A stretch of DNA of 64,000 bases from contig CAWBQK010000009.1 of assembly GCA_963791045.1 (NCBI GenBank), positions 32,001 to 96,000 of the forward strand. Reading direction: 5' to 3'. Each line of letters opens with the position of its first letter. The first letter of the stretch is position 1. The position numbers were made by a program, and so were the translations under genes. This stretch comes from Candidatus Latescibacterota bacterium (lineage in GTDB: Bacteria; Krumholzibacteriota; Krumholzibacteriia; WVZY01). Under the pieces are notes generated by a model. The model did not search any database. It was not told the origin of the DNA and worked only from the letters and a program-made list of their open reading frames with translations. Positions 12,823-58,680 of the stretch are shown here, piece by piece.

Positions 12823-13416
12823 TCAGCTCGAGGCGGTGTTGTCCTTGTCTCTGGGTTTTCTTTTGTGCAGATGATAATAACAAGTCCGCTTTACGACATC
12901 TCGCAGCAGACATTTCTCGCGGAAGTAAATCCCGCACCGGAAACACAGCTCCGGCGGCGCGGTTTCCAACTCGACGATATCGGCGGACAACCGATCGAGA
13001 AGATCCGCGGTCTGGATGAAATCCTCCGGCATAAACTGTCGAAACAGGCCGTCGAGTACCTTGTCCTGGACCTTTTCGTATCTTTCGAGCAATGAATGTG
13101 CTTCCGGCGTAAGAGACAACTCGTTCACGCGGCGGTCGGTCTTCGATTCCACGCGCAGGAGATATCCACGGCGAACGAGTCTGTCGACCGCCTTGCTCGC
13201 GGCGGCGTTGGTCACCCGGCAAAAAGCAGCCACTTCGGTTATGCTTTCAACATTGGTCGAAGCCACAAGCTTGAGAAGCCTGAGCTGGGAGATGGTGACC
13301 TCCCCACCAAGTTCCTCTCGAAGATGCTCCATCATCAACTCGTCCACCGCGGAACTGAAGATATGCATGCTCGCGAGGAAGTCGTTGATAATCCTGGTTC
13401 GCTCTTTCACAGCCAC
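12823..13416 (-). CDS. MarR-family regulator with C-terminal Cys-rich tail
   Basis: TISQLRLL..NAAASKAVDRL..DRR winged HTH; CFRCGIYFREKCLLRDVVKRTC; AAGGAG RBS before GTG 13416. Confidence 0.88.
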   Translation of the reverse strand: MAVKERTRIINDFLASMHIFSSAVDELMMEHLREELGGEVTISQLRLLKLVASTNVESITEVAAFCRVTNAAASKAVDRLVRRGYLLRVESKTDRRVNELSLTPEAHSLLERYEKVQDKVLDGLFRQFMPEDFIQTADLLDRLSADIVELETAPPELCFRCGIYFREKCLLRDVVKRTCYYHLHKRKPRDKDNTASS

Positions 13417-13935: not shown

Positions 13936-14538
13936 GTGGAATCAGTTCAAAGAACGGCTATCATAAACAACTTCCTCGCCAGCATGAGCATCTTCTCGTC
14001 GGCGACCAATGAACTCATGGCCGAGCAGCTTAAAAGCAAGCTCGGTGGCGAGTTGACCATCTCCCAGTTGAGACTCCTCAAGTTAATCGCAAAAACTGAC
14101 ATTCGAAGCATCAGCGACGTTGCCACATTCCTCGGCGTAAGCAACGCCGCGGCAAGCAAAGCGGTGGACCGCCTGGCCCGGCGCAAACTGGTTTCGAGAA
14201 TCGAATCTCCGGACGACAGACGCGCGACCCGTTTAAAACTCACTCGAAATGGCTCCCAGCTACTCGAACAATACGAGACGGCTCAGAATCATATCCTCGA
14301 AGGACTCTTCCGGCAGTTTATGCCGGAGGACTTTATTCAGTTGGCGGAACTGCTCGATCAGCTTTCCTGCGACATTGTCGAGCACGATTCCGGCCCGCGC
14401 GACGTTTGCTTTCGCTGCGGCATCTATTTCCGTGACAGATGCTCTCTCCGAAGCATTGTCGGCAACGGCTGCGGCTGCGTAAAAATCCGCGATGGGAAAA
14501 ACGTCGACGGCGCCGACACACCCAAACACAATCTGTAG
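13936..14538 (+). CDS. MarR-family regulator with C-terminal Cys-rich tail (paralog of 12823-13416)
   Basis: Same winged HTH; shared LFRQFMPEDFIQ; CFRCGIYFRDRCSLRSIVGNGCGC; GAGGGG before GTG 13936. Confidence 0.88.
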   Translation: MESVQRTAIINNFLASMSIFSSATNELMAEQLKSKLGGELTISQLRLLKLIAKTDIRSISDVATFLGVSNAAASKAVDRLARRKLVSRIESPDDRRATRLKLTRNGSQLLEQYETAQNHILEGLFRQFMPEDFIQLAELLDQLSCDIVEHDSGPRDVCFRCGIYFRDRCSLRSIVGNGCGCVKIRDGKNVDGADTPKHNL

Positions 14539-15135: not shown

Positions 15136-16016
15136 AAAAATATCCGTACTATCCGGGCTGCTCGGCCAAGGGCACCGGCAAAGCCTACGAAGAATCTCTC
15201 CTCGGAGTTTTCGAGGCCCTCGACATTCAACTCGACGAATTGGACGACTGGAACTGTTGCGGGGCGACCGCCTATATGTCAATCGATCAGACCCAGGCAT
15301 GTGCGCTCGCGGGGCGCAACCTCGCGCTCGCCGAGGCGCTGGGCAACGGCCAGGATCTCGTGACTCCCTGCAATGCGTGCTACCTTGTCCTGCACAAAAC
15401 CCAAACCTATCTCAACGAGCATCCGGAAATCCGCGACAAAGTTAAGAAAGCCCTCAACGCGGCGGGACTCAGTTACAAAGGAACGTCGCGAGTTCGCCAT
15501 CCGCTGGATATCCTCGTCAACGACATCGGGATCAAGGCCGTTGGGGAAAGGGTCACGCAGTCGCTGAAAGGGTTGAAAGTCGCCCCGTACTACGGGTGTC
15601 AGATTGTCAGACCCTATGCGCTCTTCGACGACCAGCACGACCCGCAAACGATGGACAAACTCATCAAGGCCACGGGCGCGGAAGTCGTTGACTATCCGTT
15701 CAAGACACGTTGTTGCGGGGCCAGTCAGACGGGGACTCTTCCGGAAACGGGATCTCATCTCGTGTACCAGATTCTCCAGGAGGCCCACTACAGGGGAGCC
15801 GATGTCGTGGCCACAATATGTCCCCTGTGCCAGTTCAACCTCGACGCCTATCAAAAAAAGGTTCGGGGCAAACATGATCTCGAACCGATGCCCGTGGTCT
15901 ACTTCACGCAGTTGCTGGGGATGGCTTTCGGACTGCCGGAAGAAAAAATCGGTTTCAGAAGAAACATCGTGCCGGCCGAGCCGGTCTTGAGAAGGAGAGT
16001 AGCTCATGGCGCCTAA
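15132..16016 (+). CDS. hdrB: Heterodisulfide reductase subunit B-like
   Basis: Two CCG domains: YYPGC..WNCCGA..TPCNAC and YYGC..RCCGA..TICPLC. Confidence 0.92.
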   Translation: MKKYPYYPGCSAKGTGKAYEESLLGVFEALDIQLDELDDWNCCGATAYMSIDQTQACALAGRNLALAEALGNGQDLVTPCNACYLVLHKTQTYLNEHPEIRDKVKKALNAAGLSYKGTSRVRHPLDILVNDIGIKAVGERVTQSLKGLKVAPYYGCQIVRPYALFDDQHDPQTMDKLIKATGAEVVDYPFKTRCCGASQTGTLPETGSHLVYQILQEAHYRGADVVATICPLCQFNLDAYQKKVRGKHDLEPMPVVYFTQLLGMAFGLPEEKIGFRRNIVPAEPVLRRRVAHGA

Positions 16017-17991
16017 AACCAACGATGGCAGCAACGGGACACCCCGCATAGGGGTCTACGTCTGCCACTGCGGGACCAACATCTCCGGCCCCGTGGATGT
16101 CGAGGAAGTGGCGGAGTACGTCGCGACGTGCCCGGTGTCAAGCTGGCGAAGGATTACAAGTACATGTGTCCGGCCCCGGGCAGGAGATCATCAAACAGGA
16201 CATCAAGGAATTCGGTCTCGACCGGCTTGTCGTCGCCGCGTGCTCCCCGTCGCTGCACGAGAAGACATTCCGCAACGCGGCCGCCGAGGCGGGACTGAAC
16301 CAGTTCTTTTTCCAGATGGTTAATATCCGCGAACACGACTCATGGGTCCACGAGGACAAGGGCAAGGCGACGGCCAAGGCAAAGGACCTGATCCGTGCCG
16401 CCGTCCGCCGCGTCGCAATGGCACAAACCTCTCGAAAGCAAGACGTGTCGGAATCCACCCGGACGCGCTGATCGTGGGCGGCGGGATCGCGGGCATCCAC
16501 GCGGCGCTGACGATGGCCAACGCCGGGAAGAAGGTGTACCTGGTGGAGAGGGAGCCGACGATCGGCGGCCACATGGCCCAGTTCGACAAGACGTTCCCGA
16601 CCCTCGACTGCGCCGCCTGCATCCTCACGCCGAAGATGACCCATGTGAACCCACCCCAACATCACTCTGTGGACGATGCCGAGGTGGCGAAAGTCGACGG
16701 CTTCGTCGGCGAACTACAAGGTGCGGGTGCGAACGAAGCCCCGTTACATCATCGAGGACCTGTGCGTCGGCTGCCTCGAGTGCATCGAGGCCTGCGTGTT
16801 CAAGAACGGGGAAGATTCCCGACGAGTTCAACCTGGGGCTGAGCAAGCGCAAGCCGATCTACATCCCGTTCCCCCAGGCGGTGCCGCAGGTGGTCGGTCA
16901 TCGACCCCGAAGCCTGCATCGAGTTCAGAGCGGAAAGTGCAAGAAGACCTGCGTCGAGGCGTGCGCCGACCGCGACGCGATCGACTTCCAGCAGGAAACG
17001 AGACACGAGACGATCAAGGTCGGCACGATCATGCTCGCCACCGGGTTCAAGACCTTCGATGCCAACGGGTGCCCTACTACGGCTACGGCACGTACCCCAA
17101 CGTCTACACCGCCCTGGAGGTGGAGCGACTCGTCAACGCTGCCGGCCCCACCGGCGGCGAAATCGTGCTGCGGGACGGCCGGAACCGAAGACGCGTCGGG
17201 ATCATCCACTGCGTCGGCAGCCGCGACGAGAACACCAACCGCATTGCTCGCGGGTCTGCTGCATGTATTCGTTGAAGCTCGCCCACCTGGTCAAGGAGAA
17301 AACCGGCGCGGAGGTCTACAACTTCTACATCGACATGCGGACCCCGGGCAAGGGATTGGAGGAGTTCTACAATCGGGTCGCGGATGAAGGAGCCCATTTC
17401 ATCCGCGGCAAGGTGGCGAACGTGTACCAGGAGCCGGAAAGCGATGGGGATATGGTCCTGCAGGTAGAGGACACGCTGGCCGGAATGTATCGCAAGATTC
17501 CGGTGGACATGGTGGTCCTCGCAACCGGAATCGAGCCGCAGGAGGACGCCGAGGACGTGCGCAGGATGTTCAACATCGCCTGCTCAAACGGGGGCTTCTT
17601 CATGGAGCGCCATCCCAAACTGGCGCCGGTGAGCACGCTTCACCGACGGGATCTTCCTCGCCGGGTGCTGCCAGGGACCGAGGGACATCCCCGACACCGT
17701 GGCCCAGGCCGGCGCGGCGGCGGCGGAGGCGCTGGCGCTCATCGACCGAAGGACATCGAGCTCGAGCCCAACACGGCGCGCGTCCACGAAGACGAATGCT
17801 CGGGGTGCAAGAACTGTATCGGGGTTTGCCCGTACCAGGCGATCTCATTCGAGGATGAGAGCAAGGCCGTCATCAACGAGGTGCTCTGCAAGGGATGCGG
17901 CACCTGCGTGGCAGCGTGCCCATCCGGTTCCATCCAACAGAATCTGTTCGAAGACGACGAGATCTTCGAGGAGATCTGGGGGTGTTATTGA
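16006..17991 (+). CDS. hdrA: Heterodisulfide reductase subunit A (many frameshifts in this assembly)
   Basis: Ordered fragments across three frames: GVYVCHCGTNI, VVAACSPSLH, GGGIAG, DKTFPTLDCAACILTP, IHCVGSRD, CSRVCCMYS, HPKLAPV, CKGCGTCVAACP. Confidence 0.88.
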
Positions 17992-24808: not shown

Positions 24809-24933
24809 CGCGCTCGCGGGTATTAGCAAAAAGATGATGGGTGTGCGTCATTCACAAAGCGGTGACGCACACCGAGCGCCGTTCGATCCTGTCAGGAAAA
24901 CAACCTACGCATATCCATACAGAGAGTACAACA

Positions 24934-27168
24934 ATGACACGAAATCAGATCCGGGAGGTTCTTGAGTCCGTTAAAGCCGCGGGGCGTGACGTCCTCCTTG
25001 AAACCGAAGGCATACGCATCCTCGAGGCCCTGGGTTTTGACGTTCCAAAATATGTTTTCATCCAGCGCTCGGGTGAAGTGGCCGCCGTCGATCTGGGCGC
25101 ATTTACAGGCGATCGAGTGGTGGTTAAGGTGATCTCCCCCGACATTCTGCATAAGAGCGATGTCGGGGGTGTTTTGTTTCCGGACAGAAATCACAACGCA
25201 ATCCGCACGGCCGTGGCGGAGATGGAAGAAAGTTTCATCGGCCGAAACATCGAGGGTTACACAATCCACCAAATGGTGTCTTATGACCGTTCGCTCGGCA
25301 ACGAGTTGCTACTCGGGTTAAGATCGACGCCCGACTTCGGACCGGTCGTCGTGTTTGGCGCCGGTGGAATTTACACGGAATATCTCGCGGACAATTTCAA
25401 AACAGGGCGAGACGTCGCCATCATGTCCGCCGAGGTTCCCCCTGTCGGAGGGACCGGGAGAGTTCTCGAGAGAATCGCGCTCACGCCGCTTCTCGTCGGC
25501 GGTCTCCGTGGACAGCGATCAAGGATCGCCGCCGAGGATCTCGAGAGCCTGATGGACAACATGCTCGAGTTCGCCCGGACGTTTGTGCCCAATGAGATTT
25601 CCGAGTTTGAGATAAACCCGCTGGTCGTGTCCGAAGGTCATCTGATCGCACTCGATGTCGTCGTCAAACTCGCCTCCCCCCCGATCGAAACCACGCCGGA
25701 GCGGCCGATCGACAAAATCAGCTATCTTCTTACACCACAATCTGTTGCTGTAATAGGCGTGTCCGAGAAGATGAACCCCGGACACATAATCCTCAACAAT
25801 CTGATACGCGAGGGTTTTGACAAGGATCGCATCTTTGTCATCAAACCCGGGATCGAGGAAATCGAGGGGTGCCGGTGCTACCCCGATGTCGCCTCGCTCC
25901 CGGAAAAGGTGGATCTTTTTGTGCTGAGCGTCTCTGCCGCTCAGACATCGCCCACAGTTACCGAAATTATAAAGACACAAAAAGCGGAAAGCATGATCGT
26001 CATCCCCGGCGGACTCGAGGAGAAGTCGGGCACCGAGACCATTGTTAGCGGCATGCGCGCCGCGCTTCTTGAGTCACGGTCAGATGCATGGAGGGGGCCG
26101 GTCATAAACGGCGGCAACTGTCTTGGGATTCGATCGCTTCCCGGCCGTTACGACACAATGTTCATCCCGCCCCACAAGATCGCGCTTCCGGACAAACCTC
26201 CCGCCCCGCTCGCCGTAGTCAGCCAGAGCGGCGCGTTTTCGATTTCAAAAAATAGCAAGATATCGTGCGTCAACCCGCTCTACACGATCTCGTTCGGAAA
26301 CCAGACGGATCTTACCGTCGGAGATTACCTCACCTATATGAAGGACGATCCCGACGTCGATATTTTTGCCGTTTATGTCGAGGGCTTCAAACCGCTCGAT
26401 GGAATCCGTTTCGTCAAAGCGGCGAAGGAAATCACCGAAATGGGCAAGACGGTGATCCTGTACAAGGCGGGACGTTCGTCCGAAGGGGCGAAAGCGTCGG
26501 CGAGTCATACCGCATCGATCGCGGGTAACTACCCCGTGACGCGCGAGCTGTCGACGAACGCGGGCGTAATCGTCGCCGAGACGATCGCGGATTTCGAAGA
26601 CCTCGTAATGATGTTTACATGCCTTCGTGACAAAGAGGTGGCGGGGTGGCGGCTGGGCGCGATGTCCAACGCGGGTTTCGAATCGGTGGCGATGGCGGAC
26701 AACCTCGGTCGGTTCAGGCTCGAGAATTTTGCGCCGGACACCGATGGGCTTCTTCTTGAGGCATTCAAAAAGATGCGAATCGAAAACATCGTCGACATCC
26801 ACAATCCTCTCGATCTGACGCCGATGACGACCGACTCCGGGTACCAGGCAATCATGCGCGCAATGCTCGGGGACGACGGCGTCGACGTTGGAGTGGTTGG
26901 TTGTGTTCCGATGACACCCGCGCTCAACACGCTCGTGGCTGGCGAAGGTCATCCGGATAACGTTCACTCCGAAAAAGGTATCGTGGCAAGAATGAAGAAG
27001 GTCCGGGACGTATCGACAAAGGCTTGGGTCGCCATCGTCGATGCCGGCCCCGTTTATGACGAGATGACCCGGCTGCTCAAAGAGAACGACATTCCGACGT
27101 TCCGCACGGCAGACCGCGCGCTTCGTTTGTTTCACAGATTCTGTGAGGTTCGGCTCTCGCGGGGCTGA
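24934..27168 (+). CDS. ADP-forming acyl-CoA synthetase (ACD), beta-alpha fusion
   Basis: ATP-grasp KVISPDILHKSDVGGV, FGPVVVFG, EINPL; CoA-binding domain GGNCLG, SQSGA; catalytic SHTASIAG. Confidence 0.88.
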   Translation: MTRNQIREVLESVKAAGRDVLLETEGIRILEALGFDVPKYVFIQRSGEVAAVDLGAFTGDRVVVKVISPDILHKSDVGGVLFPDRNHNAIRTAVAEMEESFIGRNIEGYTIHQMVSYDRSLGNELLLGLRSTPDFGPVVVFGAGGIYTEYLADNFKTGRDVAIMSAEVPPVGGTGRVLERIALTPLLVGGLRGQRSRIAAEDLESLMDNMLEFARTFVPNEISEFEINPLVVSEGHLIALDVVVKLASPPIETTPERPIDKISYLLTPQSVAVIGVSEKMNPGHIILNNLIREGFDKDRIFVIKPGIEEIEGCRCYPDVASLPEKVDLFVLSVSAAQTSPTVTEIIKTQKAESMIVIPGGLEEKSGTETIVSGMRAALLESRSDAWRGPVINGGNCLGIRSLPGRYDTMFIPPHKIALPDKPPAPLAVVSQSGAFSISKNSKISCVNPLYTISFGNQTDLTVGDYLTYMKDDPDVDIFAVYVEGFKPLDGIRFVKAAKEITEMGKTVILYKAGRSSEGAKASASHTASIAGNYPVTRELSTNAGVIVAETIADFEDLVMMFTCLRDKEVAGWRLGAMSNAGFESVAMADNLGRFRLENFAPDTDGLLLEAFKKMRIENIVDIHNPLDLTPMTTDSGYQAIMRAMLGDDGVDVGVVGCVPMTPALNTLVAGEGHPDNVHSEKGIVARMKKVRDVSTKAWVAIVDAGPVYDEMTRLLKENDIPTFRTADRALRLFHRFCEVRLSRG

Positions 27169-27250
27169 CCTTTGCAGAAGGATTTGGTGGGTTTTGCTGA
27201 ACGAGAGGCTCCGGACCAGCGGCGGCCTCGTCCACACAATTGGAGGTACC

Positions 27251-28612
27251 ATGAGAATCCGTTTTATTTCGACGGCGTTTGTCGTTGCGGCCTTGCTGTG
27301 CCTTGTGTTGGGGCAAGCCATGGCCGAAACCGTGGCCGGTGAAGCGGCGCTTGGATCCCAGAAATACGAGAACTACGACCGGCCCGAAGACTGTGCGGAT
27401 TGCCACGTAAATTTCTACGAACAGTGGACACAGGCGATGATGTCCCAGGCGTACACACACCACTGGGATGAAATCGAGTATTTCAATCTCGCCGTCCCCC
27501 ATGCCGAAAGAGACGAGAAGGTCGCCGGCGTCAAGGCGGGTTGCAACGGTTGCCACGCGCCTATTGTCTTTTCTTGCCGGTGACATTCCACCGCCCAGGC
27601 CGAGTGAAAACTCGCGCGCGAACGAATCGGTGTCGTGCGACGTGTGTCACACCATCACCGGCTTCGAGGGTGATACGCCGTTCAATTTCAACTTTATTTC
27701 GTCACCCGGTGATGTCAAATACGGCCCAAATGCCAATCCCGATGTGGCCGATCACGAGGTCGCGAAGAGCGAGTTCATCAAATCCGCCGAATACTGCGGC
27801 ACATGCCACAACGAAAAGAGCCCGTACGGCGCGTGGGTAAAGTCGACGCATCTCGAGTGGAAAGAAGGTCCGTACGCCGAACGCAATGTGCCGTGTCAGA
27901 ATTGCCACATGCCGACGGCGTGGGGCGCCAAGGTCGAAGACGGAGCGGAAGGCTGGGTCGCCCAGCATCTCTTCCACGGCGCGCACGATCCCGGCAAACT
28001 CGCCGGCGCCGTCGAGATCCGGATGAATCCGAAAACGCGGAAGACTCAAAGACGGGCGGCCGTGTCGTCGTCAACGTCCAGCTCTTCAACGCGAAGGCCG
28101 GACACAAGATTCCGACCGGATCGGTCGAAGATCGTATCGTGTGGCTCCATGTCACGGCGACCGACTCGAAGGGCAAGACCTTCCACCTGCCGGTGGACCA
28201 GAAAGGATTTGACGGCGAGGAGTACACAATCGCCGCCGATGTCCTCGCCTATCAGGACATGGGTGTGCCGCTCGACAAACCCGACTTCAAGGGCGTCCAG
28301 CGTGACGGCGTTCCCGTCGGCGACCGGATTTTCCGGATGCCGTACTTCGACCCGCAGGGCCGGATGACGATCATGCAGTGGAACACGGCATCGTTCGGCG
28401 CCGACTATCGGATCGGCCCGCGTGAAACCAAGATCGAAACGTACACCTGGCAGATTCCCGCCGACGCGGCGCCGGGTAAAGTGGTTTTCAAAGCGGTAAT
28501 GAACTATCAAAAACTCGTCCAGCCAGTCGCCGAGTTTCTCGGCGTCCCCAAGGACGAGACCGAGATCGTCGTGATCAACACGGCGGACACCTGGATCGAT
28601 ATCGTTGAATAG
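27251..28612 (+). CDS. Periplasmic pentaheme cytochrome c, copy 1 (frameshifts near 27565 and 28040)
   Basis: Signal peptide; CADCH, CNGCH, CDVCH, CGTCH, CQNCH; C-terminal GHKIPTGSVEDR domain collinear with copy 2. Confidence 0.85.
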
Positions 28613-28650
28613 TGACTCGGTGGGGTCTTTCTCGGGCCCTCGTTAAGCTA

Positions 28651-28833
28651 AGGCGCGGGTGGCGCCGATGGGGCCCCCGCCGCGGCGTAGCGTCGCGGAG
28701 TGCGGGGTGTACCACCTCGCTCCTAGGGGCGAATCTGAATGGTGAGTGCAAATTGCCCTTGTCGGCGTATGAGCAACCGCACGAAGCGAAAGCGAGCACG
28801 CGCGGGGTAATCGGCGACAGGACCCGCGCCGGG
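28651..28833. repeat. Dispersed GC-rich repeat, copy 2 (longer internal spacer)
   Basis: Two blocks similar to 2333-2360 and 2369-2420; internally repeated GGG..CG(A/G)(T/C)G..CCC stem-like units. Confidence 0.7.
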
Positions 28834-28983
28834 GTGGCCGATGACAGGATCCTAGCGAAGCGTAGTGCGGGCCCAAGGTAGGTCGCTTTGTTTACCTAGA
28901 ACGCAGCCGTACCGGGACCGAGAATGACCGAACCGGCCGAACTGCACCGGCGAACTGCTCGCACACAATTGGGAGGAGTTGTA

Positions 28984-30340
28984 ATGAGAGTTTTCGGATG
29001 GATTATCGTGGTCGCTCTGTTGTTGATTCCGCTGGCCGTGGCGGCGCAGGAGTCGGAGCTGCCGGCCGGGGACGAGGCGCTCGGCACCAAAAAGTACGAC
29101 CAGTACGAGATGCCCAAGACATGCGGGGCCTGTCACACTGATTTCTTCAGACAGTGGGAACAGGCGATGATGTCGCAGGCGTACACCCACCACTGGGACG
29201 AGATCGAATACTTCGAACTTGCCATCCCACACGCCGACAAAGACGAAATGGTGGCCGGTGTCAAAGCGGGGTGCAACGGTTGTCACGCCCCCGTTTCTTT
29301 TTTTGGCCGGCGATGTCCCGCCGCCACGCCCCGAGGAGAACTCGCGCGCGAATGAGTCCGTGTCGTGCGATTTATGTCATACCATCATCGGTTTCAAAGG
29401 CGACACGCCGTACAATTTTAATTTCATTTCGTCGCCCGGCAAAACCAAGTACGGCCCCAAAGAGGGTCTCTCGTCTCCCTACCATGAGACCGAGCTCCTC
29501 CCGTTCATCTCCACCGCCGAATTCTGCGGGACGTGTCACAACGAGATGAGCCCGTACGGCCAGTGGGTCAAGGCCACTCATCTCGAGTGGAAAGAAGGCC
29601 CCTATTCCGCCCAGGGTGTTCCCTGTCATCACTGTCACATGCCGAAGGGCAAGGGCAAGAACGCGGTCATGGCCAAGGAGGACTATATCGCCCAGCATCT
29701 TTTCCACGGCGCTCACGATCCAGGCAAACTCGCCGGCGCCGTCGAAATGCGGATGCACCCCGACGTGCGTGAAATCGAATACGACGGCACCATCACCCTC
29801 AAGCTCCAGCTCCATAACGCCAAGGCGGGGCACAAGATACCAACAGGGTCAGTCGAAGACCGGATTGTCTGGGTGCATGTAACCGCCACCGACGCCGACG
29901 GCAAGACCTACCACCTCCCCGTCGACAAAAAGGGGTTCGAAGGCGAGGAATACACGATCGCCGCCGACGTTCTCGCATACCAGGACATGGGTGTCCCGCT
30001 AAACGATCCAAACTTCAAGGGAGTTCAACGCGACGGCGTTCCGATCGGAGACAGGATCTTCCGCATGCCGTACTTCGACCCGCAAGGCAGGATGACGATC
30101 ATGCAGTGGAACACCAAGTCTTTCGGAGTCGACTACCGGATCGGCCCGCGAGAGACCAAGATCGAATCGTTCACCTGGGAACTTCCAGAGGATATCGCGG
30201 TCGGCATCGTCAAATTCGAGGCGGTACTCAACTATCAGCGGCTCGTCACGCCGGTTGCCGAGCTTCTCAAAGTGCCGGAAGAAGAAACTGAAACCGTTGT
30301 CATCAACCGGGCAAACACATGGGTCGAGGTTTACGAATAG
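28984..30340 (+). CDS. Periplasmic pentaheme cytochrome c, copy 2 (frameshift near 29300)
   Basis: Signal peptide; CGACH, CNGCH, CDLCH, CGTCH, CHHCH; one extra T in a T7 run. Confidence 0.87.
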
Positions 30341-30378
30341 TCGGAAAGCGGCACCGAACGATGGGAGGAGATAGCGGA

Positions 30379-31578
30379 ATGAAATGGCAAGCCTGTATCA
30401 TAATGGTTCTAATCGGTATCTTTGTGTTTTTGTCGGTCACCCCGCCGGAAACCGACGCGATCCCCGCGTTCGCACGGCGGTACAAGTTGTCGTGCACGAC
30501 ATGTCATGCGCCGTTCCCACGTCTGAAAGATTTCGGCGATGAGTTTGCCGGCAACGGCTTCTACATCCCGGAGGAAGAGAAAGAGCGCGACTACGTGTCC
30601 GGTGGCGACCCGCTGCTCTCGCTCAACAAGACGTTCCCGATCGCCATCCGCATGGATGCTTTCGCACAGTATGATAGCGACAAGGACATCGGCACCGATC
30701 TCCAGGCGCCCTGGGGTGTCAAGCTGCTCTCCGGAGGCACGATCGCCAAGAACATCGGCTACTACTTTTACTTTTATCTCATGGAGCGCGGCGACATCGC
30801 CGGTCTCGAGGATGCTTACGTTCACTTCAACAACATCCGCGGCTGGGAGCTTGACATTATGGTTGGTCAGTTCCAGACATCCGACCCGTTGATGAAACGC
30901 GAGATGAGATTGACCCGCGAAGACTACCGCGCATACGTCGCCCGTCCCGGCGAGTCGCGGATCAACATCACTTATGATCGCGGCGTGATGATCCCCTTCA
31001 CGATCACAAAGACATCAACCGACCTCGTCGGGATGGTCGTGAACGGAAACGGTCTTCCCGACGCCGATAGCGACCGGGTCTACGATGAGAATGGTTTCAA
31101 AAATGTGGCCTTTCACTTGAACCAGGCGATTGTCGATGTCGCATCGCTCGGCGGGTATGTCTATTACGGCCGCGAGAAGTCATCGGATCCGTTAGTAGAA
31201 AACGCCCCCGAATACCAGAATGAAGTGACTTATCTGGGCGTCGATGGTGGGGTGGATTTCAGTCAGCATGCGGCACTCAGAGCCCAGTATCTGTACCGCA
31301 AGGACACGAATCCGTTCTTCGTCGCAACACCCGAAGATGTCGAGACCAACGGCCTCATCGTCGAACTCGTCCTGTCCCCCGACATCGAGCGGGCTCGATA
31401 TCATGTCACGCTTCTCTACAACCTCGTCGATTCCGATGACGATTTCACTGATTATGAAACGGGAACGGCGAGCTTGTCGTATCTTCTCGCCCGAAACGCG
31501 CGGCTGATGGGAGAGTATTCCTACAACGTCACTCAAAGCTTTAACCGGGTTGTGCTCGGCTTCATCGGCGCTTTCTAA
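30379..31578 (+). CDS. Cyc2-like monoheme cytochrome c-porin fusion
   Basis: Signal peptide then AIPAFARRYKLSCTTCHAPFPRLKDFGDEFAGNGF; beta-strand-rich body ending in Phe. Confidence 0.78.
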   Translation: MKWQACIIMVLIGIFVFLSVTPPETDAIPAFARRYKLSCTTCHAPFPRLKDFGDEFAGNGFYIPEEEKERDYVSGGDPLLSLNKTFPIAIRMDAFAQYDSDKDIGTDLQAPWGVKLLSGGTIAKNIGYYFYFYLMERGDIAGLEDAYVHFNNIRGWELDIMVGQFQTSDPLMKREMRLTREDYRAYVARPGESRINITYDRGVMIPFTITKTSTDLVGMVVNGNGLPDADSDRVYDENGFKNVAFHLNQAIVDVASLGGYVYYGREKSSDPLVENAPEYQNEVTYLGVDGGVDFSQHAALRAQYLYRKDTNPFFVATPEDVETNGLIVELVLSPDIERARYHVTLLYNLVDSDDDFTDYETGTASLSYLLARNARLMGEYSYNVTQSFNRVVLGFIGAF

Positions 31579-31588
31579 ATAGCCTCTC

Positions 31589-31623
31589 AAACCCCCGATT
31601 TCGCAATGGAATCGGGGGTTTTT
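31589..31623 (+). terminator. Rho-independent terminator
   Basis: AAACCCCCGATT-loop-AATCGGGGGTTTTT. Confidence 0.85.
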
Positions 31624-31638
31624 GTGTCCATTTTGGTC

Positions 31639-31667
31639 TTGAATCCGCCCCCCGTGACCGCTATACT
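31639..31667 (+). promoter_or_regulatory. sigma70 promoter of the nickel operon
   Basis: TTGAAT-N17-TATACT. Confidence 0.7.
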
Positions 31668-31670
31668 CTT

Positions 31671-31701
31671 TGGTATTACGAATATAACATTTGTAATACC
31701 A
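31671..31701. promoter_or_regulatory. NikR operator
   Basis: Perfect arms TGGTATTAC-N13-GTAATACCA just downstream of the -10; the operon ends in nikR. Confidence 0.8.
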
Positions 31702-31714
31702 GGAGGCAAACCCG

Positions 31715-32425
31715 GTGAAATGGATTCTCGCGGCGATTTTATTCATAATTTCGACCCCGCTCGCGGTCTTCGCCCACGACATGTGGATCGAGAAAACCCC
31801 CGCGGGACCCACGCTTTTTTACGGACACAAATACGGACACAAGCACTCACAACACGAGGGCGCGGAGCTCGTCGAGTATTCTGCCTACATCATCGTCCGG
31901 GCGGACTGTTTTGACGCTGGCGGGGCGGGCGGTCCGGCCGTCCTGGGAGACACATCGCCGGTTACGATCGGCGGCCCCTGCGCGGCCGTTTTCGTGCTCA
32001 CCTCGACCGGTATCTGGTCCAAGACCCCATACGGGACAAAAAATATCCCGAAAACAGAAGCCGACAACGCGATCAAGAGTTGGTTGTCGTTCGAGAGCGT
32101 CAAACGGATCGACGCGTGGGGCGAGCCTCTCTCCCGCCCGCTCACAGAGAATCTCGAGATCACACCGGTCGAGAACCCGCTCATTCTAAAAAACGGCAAG
32201 AAACTGCGACTTCTCGTTACATTCGAGGGCCAACCCGTCTCCGGCGTAGCGGTCGGTTATGACGGAGAACCACGCGGTGTCACTGACAAGGATGGCCGCA
32301 TTAACATCAAGCTCCGCCACGGCGGATTCCAGCTTGTCCAGGCCTCGCTTCACAGGCCATACGAATCACCCGAAGCGGACGAAGTCATTCACACCACCAA
32401 TCTCAATTTTGAGACGGAGCAGTAA
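31715..32425 (+). CDS. DUF4198-like periplasmic Ni/Co uptake protein
   Basis: Signal peptide ending AH, YGH, LEITPVENP, TDKDG. Confidence 0.75.
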   Translation: MKWILAAILFIISTPLAVFAHDMWIEKTPAGPTLFYGHKYGHKHSQHEGAELVEYSAYIIVRADCFDAGGAGGPAVLGDTSPVTIGGPCAAVFVLTSTGIWSKTPYGTKNIPKTEADNAIKSWLSFESVKRIDAWGEPLSRPLTENLEITPVENPLILKNGKKLRLLVTFEGQPVSGVAVGYDGEPRGVTDKDGRINIKLRHGGFQLVQASLHRPYESPEADEVIHTTNLNFETEQ

Positions 32426-32428
32426 CCC

Positions 32429-32860
32429 ATGAAAAAGATATGTATCGTCGTCGCGTGTGTTCTTTTGGTGTCGACACTCGTCCATGCCCACGAACTCCGG
32501 CGCGCGGTATCCCAAACCGACGCCGTCGTCATTGAGTTGACCTACGCCGACGGGACCCCGTTCGATTTTGAGCAATACGAGATTTATTCGCCCGGCGGCG
32601 GGGCGCCCTTTCAGGTGGGACGTAGCGATGCGCACGGTCGCGTGGTGTTCGTTCCCGACGTGGCGGGAGAATGGCGATTGAAAGCGTTTTCGGAGGACGG
32701 GCACGGAACTGATTTCACGTTTGAAACCAACGCGGGTGGAAAGGCAATAGGATCGGATCAACCGCTGGTCTGGCGTTATTCGATGATATTCGTTGGCGTC
32801 GCCATCATTCTGGGCGCGTTTGGATTGCTTTCACTTTTCTTGAAGAGGAGGACAGGATGA
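32429..32860 (+). CDS. Membrane-anchored nickel transport accessory protein (NikL/CbiL-like)
   Basis: Signal peptide ending AH, YADGTP, GRSDAHG, DGH, C-terminal TM helix. Confidence 0.6.
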   Translation: MKKICIVVACVLLVSTLVHAHELRRAVSQTDAVVIELTYADGTPFDFEQYEIYSPGGGAPFQVGRSDAHGRVVFVPDVAGEWRLKAFSEDGHGTDFTFETNAGGKAIGSDQPLVWRYSMIFVGVAIILGAFGLLSLFLKRRTG

Positions 32861-33840
32861 GATGGGTTGTTGTGGTGTGTGCGATTCTGGTTCTGAGCTC
32901 CGGCGTCGCGAACGCCCATCACGGCGTGGCGTCACTGGGTGTCGCCGGACTCGAAGGACCCGGCGCTCCCCTCGAGACGTCAACATCGGCCACACTGCCA
33001 AGCAATGGCTGGCTGATCTACGGCAAGGTCGATTACGCACGTTTTGAGAAATTCACGCCGGAACTAGATGCTGAGGGCGACTACAACGCTTTCTGGATGT
33101 ACAGCCTCGGATACGGCATCCGCTCCTGGCTGTCTCTTTACTGTTTTGTTCCGTTCTATTCGAAGGTGGTCGAAGACAACTCGTACAACACGACGGGCTT
33201 TGCCGACATTTCACTGATGGGTGTCTTTGGATTCAAATACGACGAGGGTCTCAAACTTACGCGTGACACGGAGAGTCTCGACGACATGGAGGACTGGCAT
33301 TTCACGCTCTACGGCGGAATGAGCCTCCCCACGGGAAACGCAAACATCAAAGACTCCGAAGGCAGCATCGACCCCGGAATGTCCCTCGGATTCGGCCGCC
33401 CGGCGTACCAGGCGGGGTTCACGGCGACAAAACTCTTTGCCCATCGCTTCACGTACGTTCTCGAGGGATCCTACATCGGGTTCACCGAGTACGAATACGA
33501 TGACGGCAGCAAGGTACAGTTTGGCGAAGAACTTCGACTGAATAACGCGTTTGTCGCAAAGCTCCTCACCAAACCCAGCGCGAAGTTCAGACTCGACGGG
33601 ATTCTTGAGGCGGACTACCTGAGCCTGGGACGCGACAAGCTAAACGGCGAGGGTGAACTTGCCACCGGCGGCGACATGCTTTACATCGTACCGGGCCTGC
33701 GAATTTTTTACAAAAACACGAGCCTCGCCGGCGGCGTCAAACTCCCGGTCTGGACCGACCTCAACGAAGACGATCTCCAGCAGGGCGCCGAGGGCAAGGA
33801 AAACTACCGCGCGATCGTCACGTTGTCGGTCCTTTTGTAG
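32857..33840 (+). CDS. Outer-membrane beta-barrel transporter (MetA-pathway/SphA-like)
   Basis: Signal peptide ending AHH, GFADISL, SLPTG, TGGDMLYIVPG, alternating beta-strand pattern. Confidence 0.6.
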   Translation: MRWVVVVCAILVLSSGVANAHHGVASLGVAGLEGPGAPLETSTSATLPSNGWLIYGKVDYARFEKFTPELDAEGDYNAFWMYSLGYGIRSWLSLYCFVPFYSKVVEDNSYNTTGFADISLMGVFGFKYDEGLKLTRDTESLDDMEDWHFTLYGGMSLPTGNANIKDSEGSIDPGMSLGFGRPAYQAGFTATKLFAHRFTYVLEGSYIGFTEYEYDDGSKVQFGEELRLNNAFVAKLLTKPSAKFRLDGILEADYLSLGRDKLNGEGELATGGDMLYIVPGLRIFYKNTSLAGGVKLPVWTDLNEDDLQQGAEGKENYRAIVTLSVLL

Positions 33841-33855
33841 TAAACGGAGACACGG

Positions 33856-34497
33856 GTGCACATTCCCGACGGATTCATATCACCAAAGGTTTACATCCCG
33901 GCCTACGCCGCCGCCGCGGGGCTGTGGGTGTATGCGGCGCGGCGGGTCAAGCGGGGTCTTAGCGAAGAGGCGCTCCCGCTCATCGCGGTAATCACGGCGC
34001 TTGCCTTCGTGTTGATGATGATTGCCATCCCGCTTCCCGGCGGCACCTCGGTGCACGCTTCCGGAATCGGCGTCCTCGCCGTTTTGTTCGGCGTGTGGGT
34101 GTCGTTTTTGTCGATCTCGATGGTACTCATGATCCAGGCGCTCCTCTTCGGCGTGGGAGGCATCACGTCGCTGCCCATCAACGCGATCGCGATGGGGCTC
34201 GCCGGTGGTTTCGCCGCCGCGGTCGGCTTCCGATTGATCAAGAACCTCTCGATGAAAGCCGCATTGTTCCTGGCCGGGTGGCTCGCCGTGGTGGTACCGG
34301 CGATCATCCTCGCCGTTGTCCTCGGCTTGCAGCCGGCAATCGCGCACACCGCCGACGGCACACCACTATTTTTTCCGTTTGGAATCAATATCACGCTCCC
34401 CGCCGTTACGATTCCACATGCACTCGTCGGCATCGGCGAAGGCGTGCTTACCGTTCTCGTGTATCAGTTCGTCACACGCTTGAGGAAGAAATCGTGA
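33856..34497 (+). CDS. cbiM: ECF Ni/Co transporter S component NikM/CbiM
   Basis: MHIPDG N-terminus, GTSVH, QALLFGVGG, GEG. Confidence 0.9.
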   Translation: MHIPDGFISPKVYIPAYAAAAGLWVYAARRVKRGLSEEALPLIAVITALAFVLMMIAIPLPGGTSVHASGIGVLAVLFGVWVSFLSISMVLMIQALLFGVGGITSLPINAIAMGLAGGFAAAVGFRLIKNLSMKAALFLAGWLAVVVPAIILAVVLGLQPAIAHTADGTPLFFPFGINITLPAVTIPHALVGIGEGVLTVLVYQFVTRLRKKS

Positions 34498-35048
34498 ACA
34501 GACAAACAGCGATCCTCATCGTCTACCTCACCGTGGTGTTCGCCATCACTATGATTCACAATGCCGCGGCGCTTGCCGTCGCGCTGTTCGGAGCGATCAT
34601 CTTCGCCGGCGCTCGTCGTTGGCCGATCGCACGTCGATCGCTACTCGCCATCGTGCTTTTTAATTCGGTCGTAACGGTCTCGTACATACTGCTGACAATA
34701 TTTCAGGGTGGATTCTCTTTCTATTTTGTTGTGTTGATAAATGTCCGCGTATTTCTTCTGACGTACCTGACATTTCTTGTGGTCGAACGGGTGAATCCAT
34801 TCAAGGCCCTGGCGTTTTCAAACACACTCTCCTATCTCTTTTCCCTGGCCTACGGACACATCATCACATTTCGCCGTTTGTACGACGATTTCCGCCTGGC
34901 GCTGAAGAGCAGAACGATGAAACGCGCCCGCACGCGGGATCTCTACCGTCACGGGGCGGCAACCGGGGCGTTCTTTCTCCAGAAATCGCTCCACGACACG
35001 ACTGAAATCACCGAGGCAATGAAATCACGGGGGTTCTTCAATGATTAG
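34494..35048 (+). CDS. cbiQ: ECF T component NikQ/CbiQ
   Basis: TM helices, ALKSR and AMKSRG; GTGA overlap with the cbiM stop. Confidence 0.8.
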   Translation: MNRQTAILIVYLTVVFAITMIHNAAALAVALFGAIIFAGARRWPIARRSLLAIVLFNSVVTVSYILLTIFQGGFSFYFVVLINVRVFLLTYLTFLVVERVNPFKALAFSNTLSYLFSLAYGHIITFRRLYDDFRLALKSRTMKRARTRDLYRHGAATGAFFLQKSLHDTTEITEAMKSRGFFND

Positions 35049-35817
35049 CGTCGAGGGTCTCGGCCACGCGTACAACGGTGACGAGTTGATCCTCAAAGGA
35101 GTGACCTTTGCCGTAGAGCCAGGAGAAAAGGTGGTTCTTCTGGGGACAAACGGGTGCGGCAAATCCTCGCTTCTCAAGATATTGAACGGGTTGATTTCAC
35201 CACGCGAAGGTCGCTTCAACTATAAAGACGAGATAATCACGCCGGCGCTTCTCAAAGACGCGTCATTCAACCGCCGCTTCCGCCGTGAGGTCGTCCTACT
35301 CTTTCAAAACCCCGACGCGATGCTCTTTAACCCGACCGTCTTCGATGAAATCGCCTTCGGCCTTCGCCAGCTCGGAATCGATTCCGTAGACGACCGCGTC
35401 AAATACTGGGCGGATCAATTCGATCTCACACGTTATCTCGACCGGGTACCCTTTCAACTGAGCCGGGGGGAAAAGCAAAAGGTATGTCTCGCGTCGCTTC
35501 TCGCTATCGAGCCCGAATTCCTCCTTCTCGATGAACCGACGGCGAACCTCGACCCGCGGAGCACCGGATGGCTTGTCGACTACCTTCAGGATATTGAGAT
35601 GACAACACTCGTCACCACCCACAACCTCGGAATCGCTTCGGAGCTTGGCGACCGCACGCTTGTGTTATCCGAGACTCACGAACTGATCTATGACGGCAAG
35701 ATCGACGATCTCCTCGGCGACACAGACAAGCTCATCGCCGCGAATCTCGTTCACGTCCACAAACACAAACACGGCGATGTCGAGCACCGCCACTATCACA
35801 CCCACGACTGGGAGTAG
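35041..35817 (+). CDS. cbiO: ECF ATPase NikO/CbiO with His-rich tail
   Basis: [23 protein letters not shown], tail [18 protein letters not shown]. Confidence 0.9.
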
Positions 35818-35821
35818 GAAC

Positions 35822-36244
35822 ATGGCCAGGAAGGATGACACCATCCGTTTTACCGTGTCTTTGCCCGAAAAGCTATTCAAGGAGCTGGACAAACGCGTGA
35901 GCCGGAAAGAATATTCGTCGCGTTCCGAGTTCGTACGCGATCTCATCCGCGAGCAGATCATCGAAACAAAATGGTCGGACAGCTCAGGCGCCGTCGTCGG
36001 CGTCCTGACGATAAGCTTCGACCATCATCAGCGCGGACTCACACAGAAGATACTCGACATCCAGCATAGCAAGTTTGTCAACATCCTGTGCTCGACCCAC
36101 GTTCACATGGATCACCACAACTGCCTCGAAGTCATCATCATCAAGGGGAAGCCGCCCGAAATCGAGCGTATAAAAAATCAAATCGGCGGGCTTCGCGGGG
36201 TCCGCTTTGCCAAACTCACGCGAGCGTCAACAGTTGAGATGTAG
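35822..36244 (+). CDS. nikR: Nickel-responsive regulator NikR
   Basis: [28 protein letters not shown]. Confidence 0.95.
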
Positions 36245-49523: not shown

Positions 49524-51762
49524 CTAGTTCAGTCCTGCCTTATCGAGAAGGCCGGTGAACCGCGGGTCGGAACGCAAAACATCGAGACCGGGATGAACTC
49601 GCAAAGTCTCCATCCGGTGATCGCGTTCCTCGAAAGCCGAATTGAGCCAAGCGAAGGCCCTGTCACTCTCGCCCAACCCCGCATAGATAAGCGCCACACG
49701 GAATGGCGACACATACCTTTCACCCGACAACTCGAAAAGCTGATCCAAAACGCCGCGGGCACGGTCACCTTCGCCTGAGAGCGAGAAAATGATTCCAAGC
49801 TGAGAGAGGATCAAAGTGTCGCCGTCCCCCGCAAGACTCATCGCCTTTTGCGCCTCATCGATGGCCCTGGCGTACGCCGATCTGTGCGCGTAGGCAAGCG
49901 CGAGGAAATAGTGGGCGATGGCAAAACTGGGGTCCATTTCGAGTGTCTTGCGGAGCTGGTATATCGCCTCGTTATACCGCCGCGCGAAGTAGTACACCTG
50001 ACCGAGGTCGTTGTTGATGATGAGGGAGAGCGGGTCGAGTTCAAGCGCTTTTCTGCCCTCGGCGACCGCTTCGTCGTGCCGCCCCATGTAAGTCAAGAAT
50101 TCGGAGTACCACTGGTGGGCCGTCGCGTAGCTCGGATTCAGTTCGAGCGCACGTTTGTACTCTTTTTCCGCATTCGCCCAGTCCCAATCGTAATTGGCGC
50201 TTATCCACCCGAGCGATGCGTGCGCCTCTGCCAGCGTGTCGTCCAGCTTCGCCGGCTTTCTCCGCGGATGCCCTCGCGCGCGGAAATGCTTCCTTCGGCG
50301 AAAGGTGCCCGTACCACCCAAGCAGGGCGTATGAATCCGCTATCCCCGCATGGGCGATCGCGTAGTCCGGATCCTTGTCGATCGCCTGGCGATAGTACTC
50401 GAGGCTCTTCAGGTAACCGATCTCGGTTCGGAGATTCCAGAAGAACTGTCCCTTGAGATACAGGTTGTACGCTTCGACATCCTCGGTATGGCGTTTGACG
50501 AGAGCTTCTCTTTCGCTCTCCAAAAATTGTGACCCGCAACTTGTTGACGATGGCAAGTGTGATCTCGTCCTGGATGGCGAAAACATCCTCCATCTCGCGA
50601 TCGTACCGCTCGGACCATAGATGATAGCCGTCCGCCGCGTTGATCAAGCTGGGCGGTGATCCGGATCCGGTTCCCCGCTTTGCGGATGCTCCCTTCGAGA
50701 ATCGTTCCGACATTGAGCTTCTGGCCGATCCCGCGAATATCCTCGTTCTGGTCCTTGAACGAAAACGCCGAGGTTCGCGCCACAACCCGGAGCCCCTCGA
50801 CTTTGGCGAGCGCGTTTAATGATTTCTTCGGCAATTCCGTCACAAAGATATTCGAGTTCTTTTTTTCGGCTGACATCGGCAAAGGGAAGAACGGCGATCG
50901 ATTTCTGGAGATCTACGGGAGTAATTACTTTGCGGGGAAGCGGTTCGACGGCAATATTCCCGGGGGCCGTGAGATACTCGAGCATCTCCCCGGCGGTCTG
51001 GAAACGGTCGGCGGGATCTTTTTCCATCGCGTGCTCGACGATCCGCTGAATCGCGTCGGGGACTTCCGGCCGCAGCTGCTCGATCGGCACGGCCTCTTCA
51101 TTTATGACGGAATATACGATCGCCGCGTCGTAATCGCCTTTGAAGGGAAGTTCGCCGGTAAGCATTTCATAGAGGATGACGCCGAGCGACCAAATGTCGC
51201 TGCGGTGGTCCACCTCTCCCCCGCTTCCCTGCTCCGGCGACATGTACGCGGCGGTCCCCACACTCTTTGTCGTCTTAGAAATCTCGGCGCCCCCGACAAT
51301 CTTGGCGAGACCAAAATCCATAATCTTGATCTGGCCGTTGTCGGTGATCATGATATTGGAACTCTTGATATCCCGATGGATGACACCCCGTTTGTGTGCG
51401 GCGTCGAGACCGCGGGCGGCCTGTGCGGCGTATTCGATCGCGGTCGCGATACTCGCCGGGCCCTGCCGCGAGAACTCCCGGATGCTGTGTCCCTCGACAT
51501 AGGCCATCGATATAAAAATGAGGCTTTCGTCTTCGTCGATTTCGAAAATGGTGCAGATATTGGGGTGATCCAGCGCCGCGGCGGCCTGCGCCTCCCGGAT
51601 GAACCGCTCCCTGTGCTCCGTGTTCTCGAACGCGTGCGGCTGGAGAAATTTTAATGCCACCGGACGTTTGAGCCTTTCGTCCTCGGCCTTATACACGACT
51701 CCCATTCCGCCCTCACCGAGCTTCTCGAGAATCCTGTAATGAGATATTGTTCGTCCAATCAT
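49524..51762 (-). CDS. Ser/Thr kinase + TolB-like (SIAVLPF) + TPR protein; several frameshifts
   Basis: GEGGMG, HRDIK, DFG, YMSPE, then [26 protein letters not shown] and TPRs across frames. Confidence 0.85.
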
Positions 51763-52441: not shown

Positions 52442-52480
52442 ATCGAGGATCTTGTAATGGGAGATCGTCTTGCCGATCAT
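52442..52480 (-). pseudogene. 13-codon N-terminal stub of a third Ser/Thr kinase
   Basis: Encodes MIGKTISHYKILD; ATGA-coupled to the stop of the 52477-55132 kinase. Confidence 0.7.
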
Positions 52481-58200: not shown

Positions 58201-58680
58201 ATCGCTTTTCTCCACCACATCGTTGATCATTCCCTGAAGCCCCATGGCACGCCCGTCATCGGGTGAATAGATCCGCTCGATCCCGTAATCGTGGAGCTCA
58301 TCCATCTCCTCTGGAAGAATCACTCCACCCCCACCGCCGAATATCTTTATGTGATCGGCGCCGCGCTCTTTCAAGAGGTCATGCATGTATTTGAAAAACT
58401 CGATGTGCCCGCCCTGGTACGATGTAATCGCGATGGACTGAGCATCTTCCTGGACGGCGCAATCCACGATGTCACCGACACTGCGATCGTGACCCAGATG
58501 GATGACTTCGACTCCGGTGGACTGGAGAATCCGGCGCATGATATTTATCGCCGCATCGTGCCCGTCAAAGAGCGATGCCGCGGTAACGATTCTCACGTGG
58601 TTTTTGGGTTTGTATGGTTTAATTTCTCGCATGCTTGTCTTCGTCCCCATTGTTTTGTCCGCACTTCTGTTTTTAGACAC
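55251..58680 (-). CDS. icmF: Fused isobutyryl-CoA mutase/MeaB GTPase IcmF (frameshift near 55960)
   Basis: [13 protein letters not shown]12-binding domain, [51 protein letters not shown]. Confidence 0.92.

Follow-up and report, generated by a model that had tools for sequence, protein, structure and literature searches.

Cyc2, a fused cytochrome-porin, is used as the metagenomic marker gene for microbial iron oxidation. Keffer et al. (PMC8406198) give as its criteria the motif AXPXFAR[Q/K][T/Y] 5 amino acids upstream of CXXCH, a PXL motif four residues behind CXXCH, a minimum length of 365 aa and a 16-strand barrel, and name OprO and OprP as its structural relatives. FeGenie-based cyc2 calls, mostly of cluster 3, are reported for metagenome-assembled genomes (MAGs) of Krumholzibacteria, Aminicenantes, Calditrichota, KSB1, Eisenbacteria and Gemmatimonadota in PMC7914226 and PMC9769843; cluster 3 Cyc2 genes occur in iron reducers too. 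A second relevant system is MccSep of Geobacter sulfurreducens, identical to ExtKL (GSU2937-2936), which is described as a periplasmic tetrameric pentaheme selenoprotein polysulfide reductase that also reduces selenite (PMC13510729). According to the same report, it consists of an Ig-like stem and a cap that holds five hemes, heme 2 has His and a strictly conserved distal Cys as its ligands, and the active site is built from heme 2 and an AGHxIPxG loop. Its selenocysteine (Sec) lies within the peptide ...NHAGHSIPDGUPTPNR, and the variants U325A, U325C and C239H lose activity (PMC13510729). Here we analysed a 64,000-nt stretch (the window) of contig CAWBQK010000009.1 from Candidatus Latescibacterota bacterium, in which two pentaheme cytochrome genes and a gene for a fused cytochrome-porin lie head to tail on the + strand; all coordinates are positions in the window. 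Each part of this locus falls within or close to a known kind. To judge from the literature searched, what appears to be new is that a Cyc2-type pore is obligately paired with a pentaheme cytochrome that has the MccSep fold and Ser in place of Sec.

Linkage of the two genes was assessed in 80 related loci from genome contigs, the neighbours of which comprised 880 clustered open reading frames (ORFs). An earlier note on this DNA had named a lack of conserved porin-pentaheme linkage as a finding that would count against its interpretation; a porin gene lay directly 3' of the pentaheme gene, on one strand with it, in 77 of the 80 loci. Two of the exceptions are contigs that end right after the pentaheme gene (L008 and L031), and the third (L040) is without a porin in 7.6 kb of downstream sequence, also when searched with a hidden Markov model (HMM). 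Clustering of the neighbouring ORFs revealed no other neighbour conserved around the pair, the next commonest being a sigma-54 response regulator at 15 of the 80 loci. By their NCBI labels the loci belong to Ignavibacteriota (14), Calditrichota (9), Bacteroidota (8), Krumholzibacteriota (5) and several other phyla, with 30 unlabelled. We conclude that linkage of the pentaheme and porin genes is near-obligate across many FCB-group phyla, with many sediment bacteria among the carriers. In this respect the window-type porin differs from Cyc2, as its gene is nearly always preceded by a pentaheme gene; a literature search with subscription journals and bioRxiv supplements outside its coverage found no description of a Cyc2-pentaheme pair.

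The porin gene encodes a signal peptide followed by AIPAFARRYKLSCTTCH, with IPAFARRY at 30460-30483 and CTTCH at 30493-30507. The mature N-terminus reads AIPAFARRY-KLS-CTTCH-APF-PRL, such that 3 residues separate the AIPAFARRY motif from the first Cys of CxxCH. The protein has a single CxxCH (CTTCH, residues 39-43) after its hydrophobic leader, and C39, C42 and H43 were invariant in an alignment of 36 family members. The PxL motif is present as H43-A-P-F-P47-R-L49, with P47 and L49 invariant in the same alignment. The window porin departs from the published Cyc2 motif in having R where Q/K is expected. Strict FAR[QK][TY] occurred in 11 of the 36 aligned porins, and P29, A30 and R33 were invariant. 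An AlphaFold2 (AF2) model with a mean predicted local distance difference test (pLDDT) score of 75 contained 16 long strands; the barrel scored 85-95 and the heme domain had low confidence. Foldseek matched this model to 16-strand porins, including OprP (2o4v, TMq 0.59) and OprO (4rjw/4rjx). Pfam and NCBIfam searches with the porin gave no match, a porin search returned 2926 relatives, all of them unnamed, and an Atlas search retrieved only unnamed clusters and, besides these, one that had Porin_O_P on 20% of its members.

The window porin therefore shares with A. ferrooxidans Cyc2, Mariprofundus Cyc2PV-1 and Leptospirillum Cyt572 (N-terminus YPGFARKYNF) a signal peptide, PxFAR at the mature N-terminus, a single CxxCH, PxL four residues on, a length of ~400 aa and a predicted OprO/OprP-like 16-strand barrel. 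The earlier note had proposed a Cyc2-like barrel with N-terminal PAFARxYxxSCxxCH, to be abandoned if no barrel was predicted; the signature is present, and structure prediction returned the barrel. By the published signature and predicted fold the third gene is a Cyc2-like fused cytochrome-porin, in which a short N-terminal domain with one c-type heme would precede an outer-membrane barrel.

The pentaheme proteins belong to a very large and unnamed family. A search in which 8000 candidates were scored yielded 2619 proteins at E <= 0.001, the best 120 of which were mostly ~437-478 aa long and intact. Relatives in species-representative genomes numbered 532, and the wider superfamily comprised 3537 clusters (50% identity, E <= 0.001). 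Pfam matched generic multiheme models only. In an alignment of 36 sequences from many phyla the mean column identity was 73%. A lack of CxxCH conservation would likewise have counted against the earlier note; the motifs were invariant in both the pentaheme and the porin alignments. Further invariant blocks of the pentaheme were a Thr-His-x-Trp-Asp-Glu run (T67-F76 in P0002 numbering), QHLFHGAH, G-H-x-x-P-x-G-S and DYR-x-x-PR. The heme-free C-terminal domain described in the earlier note is also present in both window proteins, where this half holds long conserved motifs that include AGHKIPTGSVEDR and RIFRMPYFDPQGRMTIMQWNT.

In an AF2 model of the pentaheme (mean pLDDT 77), the N-terminal half was helical and the C-terminal half was a confidently predicted beta-sandwich. 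Its only whole-length Foldseek match was penta-heme cytochrome c552 of Thermochromatium tepidum (5ZE8; E 1.1e-18, TM 0.56/0.64, 462 aligned columns), which was also the sole match by sequence among Protein Data Bank (PDB) entries (E 5e-9); the PDB copies used for both searches did not include the MccSep structures 9WT8-9WTC. Although the fold match to c552 spans the whole length, the two sequences are just 19% identical. We read the pentaheme as a soluble periplasmic five-heme c-type cytochrome, with a predicted helical heme-bearing N-half and a predicted Ig-like beta-sandwich C-half; c552 and, as described, MccSep/ExtKL have this fold.

Several features link the window pentahemes to MccSep/ExtKL. 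Like MccSep they are periplasmic and ~450 aa long, combine a heme cap at the N-terminus, with five CxxCH motifs, and an Ig-like domain at the C-terminus, and contain the AGHxIPxG loop, encoded as AGHKIPTGS at 28097-28123 in gene 1 and at 29825-29851 in gene 2. The match to the ExtKL equivalog profile NF040886 was weak but significant (E 1.5e-12) and covered residues 152-309 only; at 46.8 bits it fell well below the cut-off of 250. A porin gene accompanies both systems, Geobacter extI being located beside extKL (PMC5877670). Where MccSep has Sec, however, the window pentahemes read ...NAKAGHKIPTGSVEDR, with Ser at the Sec/Cys position and no in-frame TGA. Ser occupied this position in both window genes and, as an invariant S288, in 36 of 36 family members. 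Of 91 full-length-like superfamily representatives, 29 had S at the equivalent position, 19 had L, 9 had I, 7 had V and 27 had another residue, and none had C. The window pentahemes also lack the distal Cys for heme 2: all ten Cys of P0001, the gene 2 product, are inside CxxCH motifs, and none is extra in the gene 1 product, P0002 or P0242. As there is no Cys outside CxxCH, a His/Cys heme would not be possible. Thus, the window pentahemes are distant relatives of ExtKL/MccSep that share the MccSep fold and fail its defining catalytic features.

The resemblance to the Geobacter ext cluster pointed out in the earlier note is therefore a loose one: it extends to the porin-pentaheme pairing and the NF040886 match, and fails for Sec/Cys and for the remaining partners. 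Among the neighbouring ORFs of the 80 loci no ExtHIJKL-type partner (rhodanese lipoprotein ExtH or small periplasmic ExtJ) was conserved, and Pfam searches with 11 representatives of 11 neighbour clusters identified no rhodanese, ExtJ-like or quinol-dehydrogenase gene. The porins differ as well. ExtI has 21 strands and is not known to carry heme, whereas the window porin carries heme and has 16 strands.

We give about an even chance to the view that the operon encodes a two-part outer-membrane redox module, a variant on the Cyc2 theme with its first part duplicated here. Judging from the sequences, such a module probably moves electrons across the outer membrane. The mechanism that we infer for it (physical docking, electron direction and substrate) builds on the parts, families, folds and near-obligate linkage described above. 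The pentaheme would collect or deliver periplasmic electrons and exchange them with the single heme of the pore, which would in turn react with a soluble redox species entering the barrel, the most plausible candidates being Fe2+ and chelated Fe3+. Six hemes would thereby make up a path across the outer membrane. Disposal of electrons would be favoured by the nature of the host, which resembles a fermentative anaerobe. A periplasmic multiheme gene also adjoins an outer-membrane barrel gene in the porin-cytochrome conduits (MtrCAB, PioAB/MtoAB, Geobacter Pcc/Ext). The conduit barrels, however, have at least 20 strands and sheathe a deca- or octaheme protein (Keffer et al., PMC8406198), whereas the window barrel has its own heme and 16 strands. 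Because a barrel of this size is too small to sheathe a 45-kDa protein, contact between pentaheme and porin would have to occur at the periplasmic mouth of the barrel.

Several observations weigh against this view. Gene linkage is the whole basis for the putative docking of pentaheme and porin. No inner-membrane quinol dehydrogenase that could be the source or sink of the electrons was linked to the pair in the 80 loci. A purified Cyc2 is described as having a low-spin heme with two axial ligands (PMC13692758), whereas in the 36 sequences of the window porin family neither a His nor a Met is invariant outside CxxCH as a candidate second ligand. The pentaheme is conserved far beyond the needs of a shuttle, including a heme-free domain with long invariant motifs; this pattern, as read from the alignment, suits an enzyme better than a simple relay. 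Moreover, its nearest characterised relative is an enzyme and not a shuttle.

With rather less confidence, short of an even chance, we suggest that the pair is a widespread, undescribed outer-membrane redox machine of the FCB group, the chemistry of which would be neither classical Cyc2 iron oxidation nor polysulfide reduction. The MccSep-fold protein with Ser for Sec would then be the obligate partner of a Cyc2-type pore.

The main rival to an electron-transfer module is an enzyme with an uptake channel, following the logic of ExtI/ExtKL, which we regard as possible but rather unlikely. In that case the pentaheme would function as a periplasmic oxidoreductase that turns over a small inorganic substrate at one of its hemes, beside the AGHKxPTGS loop, and the porin would mainly pass substrate in or out, its heme having a side role. 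The distant homology to MccSep/ExtKL, with an active site of heme 2 and the same loop, is consistent with this explanation, as are the extreme conservation of the pentaheme, heme-free domain included, and the fact that OprP and OprO, the structural relatives of the barrel, are anion channels. However, the Sec/Cys position is Ser in all 36 family members aligned and never Cys in the superfamily representatives, and the window proteins have no Cys beyond the five CxxCH that could ligate a His/Cys heme, whereas MccSep is inactivated by U325A, U325C and C239H. In addition, a plain uptake channel needs no covalent heme, yet the heme motif is invariant in 36 of 36 porins.

If the suggestion of an undescribed machine is true, those calls that equate cyc2 with iron oxidation in Ignavibacteria, Calditrichota, KSB1, Krumholzibacteria, Aminicenantes and related groups would have to be reinterpreted. 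The Cyc2-like gene of these phyla is almost never alone, as it follows a strongly conserved pentaheme gene, and the only characterised relative of that pentaheme is a sulfur- and selenium-reducing enzyme, which alters the meaning of a cyc2 hit in anaerobic heterotrophs. As a compact two-protein, six-heme pair, the system should be tractable for expression and for tests of outer-membrane electron transfer.

The two pentaheme genes of the window are paralogous. Nucleotide repeat blocks in the two copies were 74-86% identical, and the joined proteins were 68.8% identical. Both products start with a signal-peptide-like N-terminus, that of gene 1 ending ...GQAMA. The heme motifs of gene 1 are CADCH (27392-27406), CNGCH (27542-27556), CDVCH (27636-27650), CGTCH (27795-27809) and CQNCH (27894-27908); those of gene 2 are CGACH (29122-29136), CNGCH (29272-29286), CDLCH (29366-29380), CGTCH (29525-29539) and CHHCH (29624-29638). 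The earlier note was therefore correct in describing tandem secreted paralogs, but the five CxxCH motifs of each are obtained only after joining of reading frames (see below). All 80 relatives had a single pentaheme copy within the fetched flanks, so the tandem duplication is particular to this genome. Over 453 aa, the joined gene 1 product and the intact protein P0105 were 89.4% identical, and the gene 2 product was 88% identical to the intact protein P0002. As each copy has its own intact near-ortholog elsewhere, the two genes are old paralogs. The shared leader noted earlier is likewise present just 5' of both start codons, as CACACAATTGG(G)AGG. It is not conserved, however: the string ACAATTGG was found at the equivalent place in 0 of the 80 related loci, indicating that the leader belongs to the duplicated unit and is no family-wide signal.

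Translation with table 11 established that neither pentaheme gene is a single ORF in this assembly, gene 1 extending over three frames and gene 2 over two. The earlier note treated both as plain genes, the frameshifts having gone unnoticed by its reader. Both genes shift +1 at one codon, the Phe of CNGCHAPxxF/LAGDxPPPRP, where gene 1 reads GTC TTT T CTT GCC and gene 2 reads TCT TTT T TTG GCC. With TTTT taken as one step, the gene 2 product (P0001, 451 aa) aligned without gaps at the shift site to 13 intact homologs. In tblastn searches all 80 related loci continued through the site in a single frame. A codon pattern matched 67 of them, all in frame, with TTT or TTC followed by a CTN, TTR or ATG codon (TTT CTT GCC, TTT TTG GCC and similar). 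Across the second break of gene 1 the repeat spacing between the gene copies dropped from 1730 to 1728, consistent with a -1 break. Joining of the three segments of gene 1 gave 453 aa without a stop, with identities to P0105 of 93/106 before, 141/156 between and 171/190 after the breaks (88-90%). No decay was apparent downstream of the breaks in either gene.

The most likely explanation for these frameshifts is that they are indel errors of the assembly. The relatives are in frame, the identity of the joined product is even across the breaks and other genes of the window are broken as well, and on these grounds we read the breaks as assembly indels; the organism would then make both full-length pentahemes. 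Two observations are at odds with this explanation. The extra T is at the very same codon in two old paralogs, which could plausibly have come about if reads of one copy were mapped to the other during polishing. Homopolymers, moreover, are not generally miscalled, as the window contains 55 runs of at least 6 nt, several of them inside ORFs with full-length Pfam matches. General homopolymer miscalling was rejected on the basis of A7 at 3343, T7 at 3418, A7 at 4765, C7 at 25676 and A7 at 42634 and 42742, which are all in ORFs of this kind.

Real mutations, which would make both pentaheme genes pseudogenes and leave only the porin functional, are an improbable alternative. The deposited protein set includes a truncated 326-aa gene 2 product (P0086, a fragment), three breaks fall within 2.7 kb and homopolymer runs in the rest of the window are as a rule called correctly, but the joined frames are without a stop and identity to P0105 does not fall off across either break of gene 1. 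Essential-looking neighbours, HdrA among them, are even more broken, which points to sequence quality, and it would be a strange coincidence for both genes to have been inactivated independently at one codon.

A biological origin of the shared +1 shift at TTT-T, whether by programmed +1 ribosomal frameshifting on a slippery Phe codon or by slippage within the T run that turns the gene on and off, is very improbable indeed: codon and direction are identical in paralogs just 69% identical, reasoning from the sequence suggests that on UUU-U the Phe tRNA could re-pair perfectly after a +1 slip, and 7 of 23 short library representatives with the heme-2 motif lose family similarity 3-20 residues past it, but the site is in one frame in every related locus, P0002 and P0105 are intact at 88-89% identity, inspection of the shift-site sequence revealed no Shine-Dalgarno-like element upstream and no stop, hungry or evidently rare 0-frame codon after the slip, gene 1 would require a second, unrelated -1 correction, many other genes of the window are broken, and a T4 run is too short for known forms of transcriptional slippage. 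Sec read-through of the TGA that ends the first frame of gene 1 was also rejected, since the text after the TGA is unlike the family and that of the +1 frame is family-like.

Breaks of this kind were seen elsewhere. The HdrA-like gene at 16003-17988 (+), beside intact HdrBC-like, MvhD and hydrogenase genes, switches frame many times in 2 kb; recognisable HdrA text is present in all three frames, and the G+C content of this region is the window maximum (62.6%). In an IcmF-like fused B12/MeaB/mutase gene at 55254-58680 (-), one extra base near 55906-55958 causes a split that falls exactly at Pfam position 288, and a Ser/Thr kinase gene at 52480-55132 (-) is severed from its tetratricopeptide repeat (TPR) part by one extra base near 54359-54408. 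The mutase and kinase breaks are not at long runs, so a homopolymer explanation fails for them too. Judged from the ORF list, a second kinase/TPR gene at 49527-51762 appears to be split as well. In a related MAG the porin gene extends over three frames (L070:9536-10659), a similar break in another assembly. The seven short representatives mentioned above (P0299, P0319, P0324, P0344, P0346, P0355 and P0364) are from other assemblies, and F-L-A-G-D-x-P-P-P-R-P may thus be a stretch that is prone to indels in general. Automated annotation should be viewed with caution, as both pentaheme genes of this assembly would be called as fragments, P0086 being one example.

The coordinates of the features of the locus are collected in Table 1.

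Table 1. Features of the pentaheme cytochrome and cytochrome-porin locus, in window coordinates.
Feature	Position	Strand	Remarks
Leader and ribosome-binding stretch of gene 1 (CACACAATTGGAGG)	27233..27246	+	read from sequence; repeated 5' of gene 2
Pentaheme cytochrome gene 1	27251..28612	+	453 aa conceptual product after joining three frame segments
Break 1 of gene 1, TTTT vs TTT in relatives	27569..27572	+	frame moves +1 at Phe of CNGCHAPxxF/LAGD
Break 2 of gene 1, -1 frame change, one base short	28038..28048	+	variable loop ...RMNPKTR/..KTGG
Spacer between paralogs, 371 nt	28613..28983	.	contains 62-nt repeat copy 28775-28836
Leader and ribosome-binding stretch of gene 2 (CACACAATTGGGAGG)	28962..28976	+	read from sequence
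Pentaheme cytochrome gene 2	28984..30340	+	451 aa (P0001) if TTTT = one step
Break of gene 2, T7 run, T6 needed for in-frame reading	29298..29304	+	+1 shift, same Phe codon as gene 1
Fused monoheme cytochrome-porin, 399 aa, intact	30379..31578	+	signal peptide, IPAFARRY, CTTCH, PRL, predicted 16-strand barrel, C-terminal Phe
Intrinsic-terminator-like hairpin then U run, end of operon	~31589..31626	+	-24 kcal/mol, z -4.17

The 5' neighbour of the three genes is a gene for ADP-forming acetyl-CoA synthetase (24841-27168). Further upstream, at ~14.5-22.5 kb, are genes for HdrBC-like proteins, MvhD, the small and large subunits of a NiFe hydrogenase, HycI, HypA and HypB, in agreement with the hydrogenase/Hdr island that the earlier note had placed next to the locus. 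The terminator that it had placed 3' of the porin gene was also recovered as a hairpin with a U run; 0 of 200 shuffles folded equally well, and a separate pattern scan overlooked this hairpin.

Directly past the terminator is a nickel/cobalt energy-coupling factor (ECF) uptake cluster (31715-36241, +) that encodes DUF4198, a NikL-like protein, a MetA-like outer-membrane barrel, CbiM, an ABC ATPase and NikR. This cluster fits the nearby NiFe hydrogenase, and in other genomes it is unlinked to the pentaheme-porin pair. The 62-nt element between the pentaheme genes is a dispersed repeat with a second copy at 2362-2423 (81% identical); an Rfam search of 26500-32500 at E <= 1, which covers the copy between the genes, gave no match. 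Finally, a 179-nt inverted repeat (12911-13089 and 14263-14441, 70% complementary) spans two divergently placed MarR-family genes, which are probably paralogous regulators.

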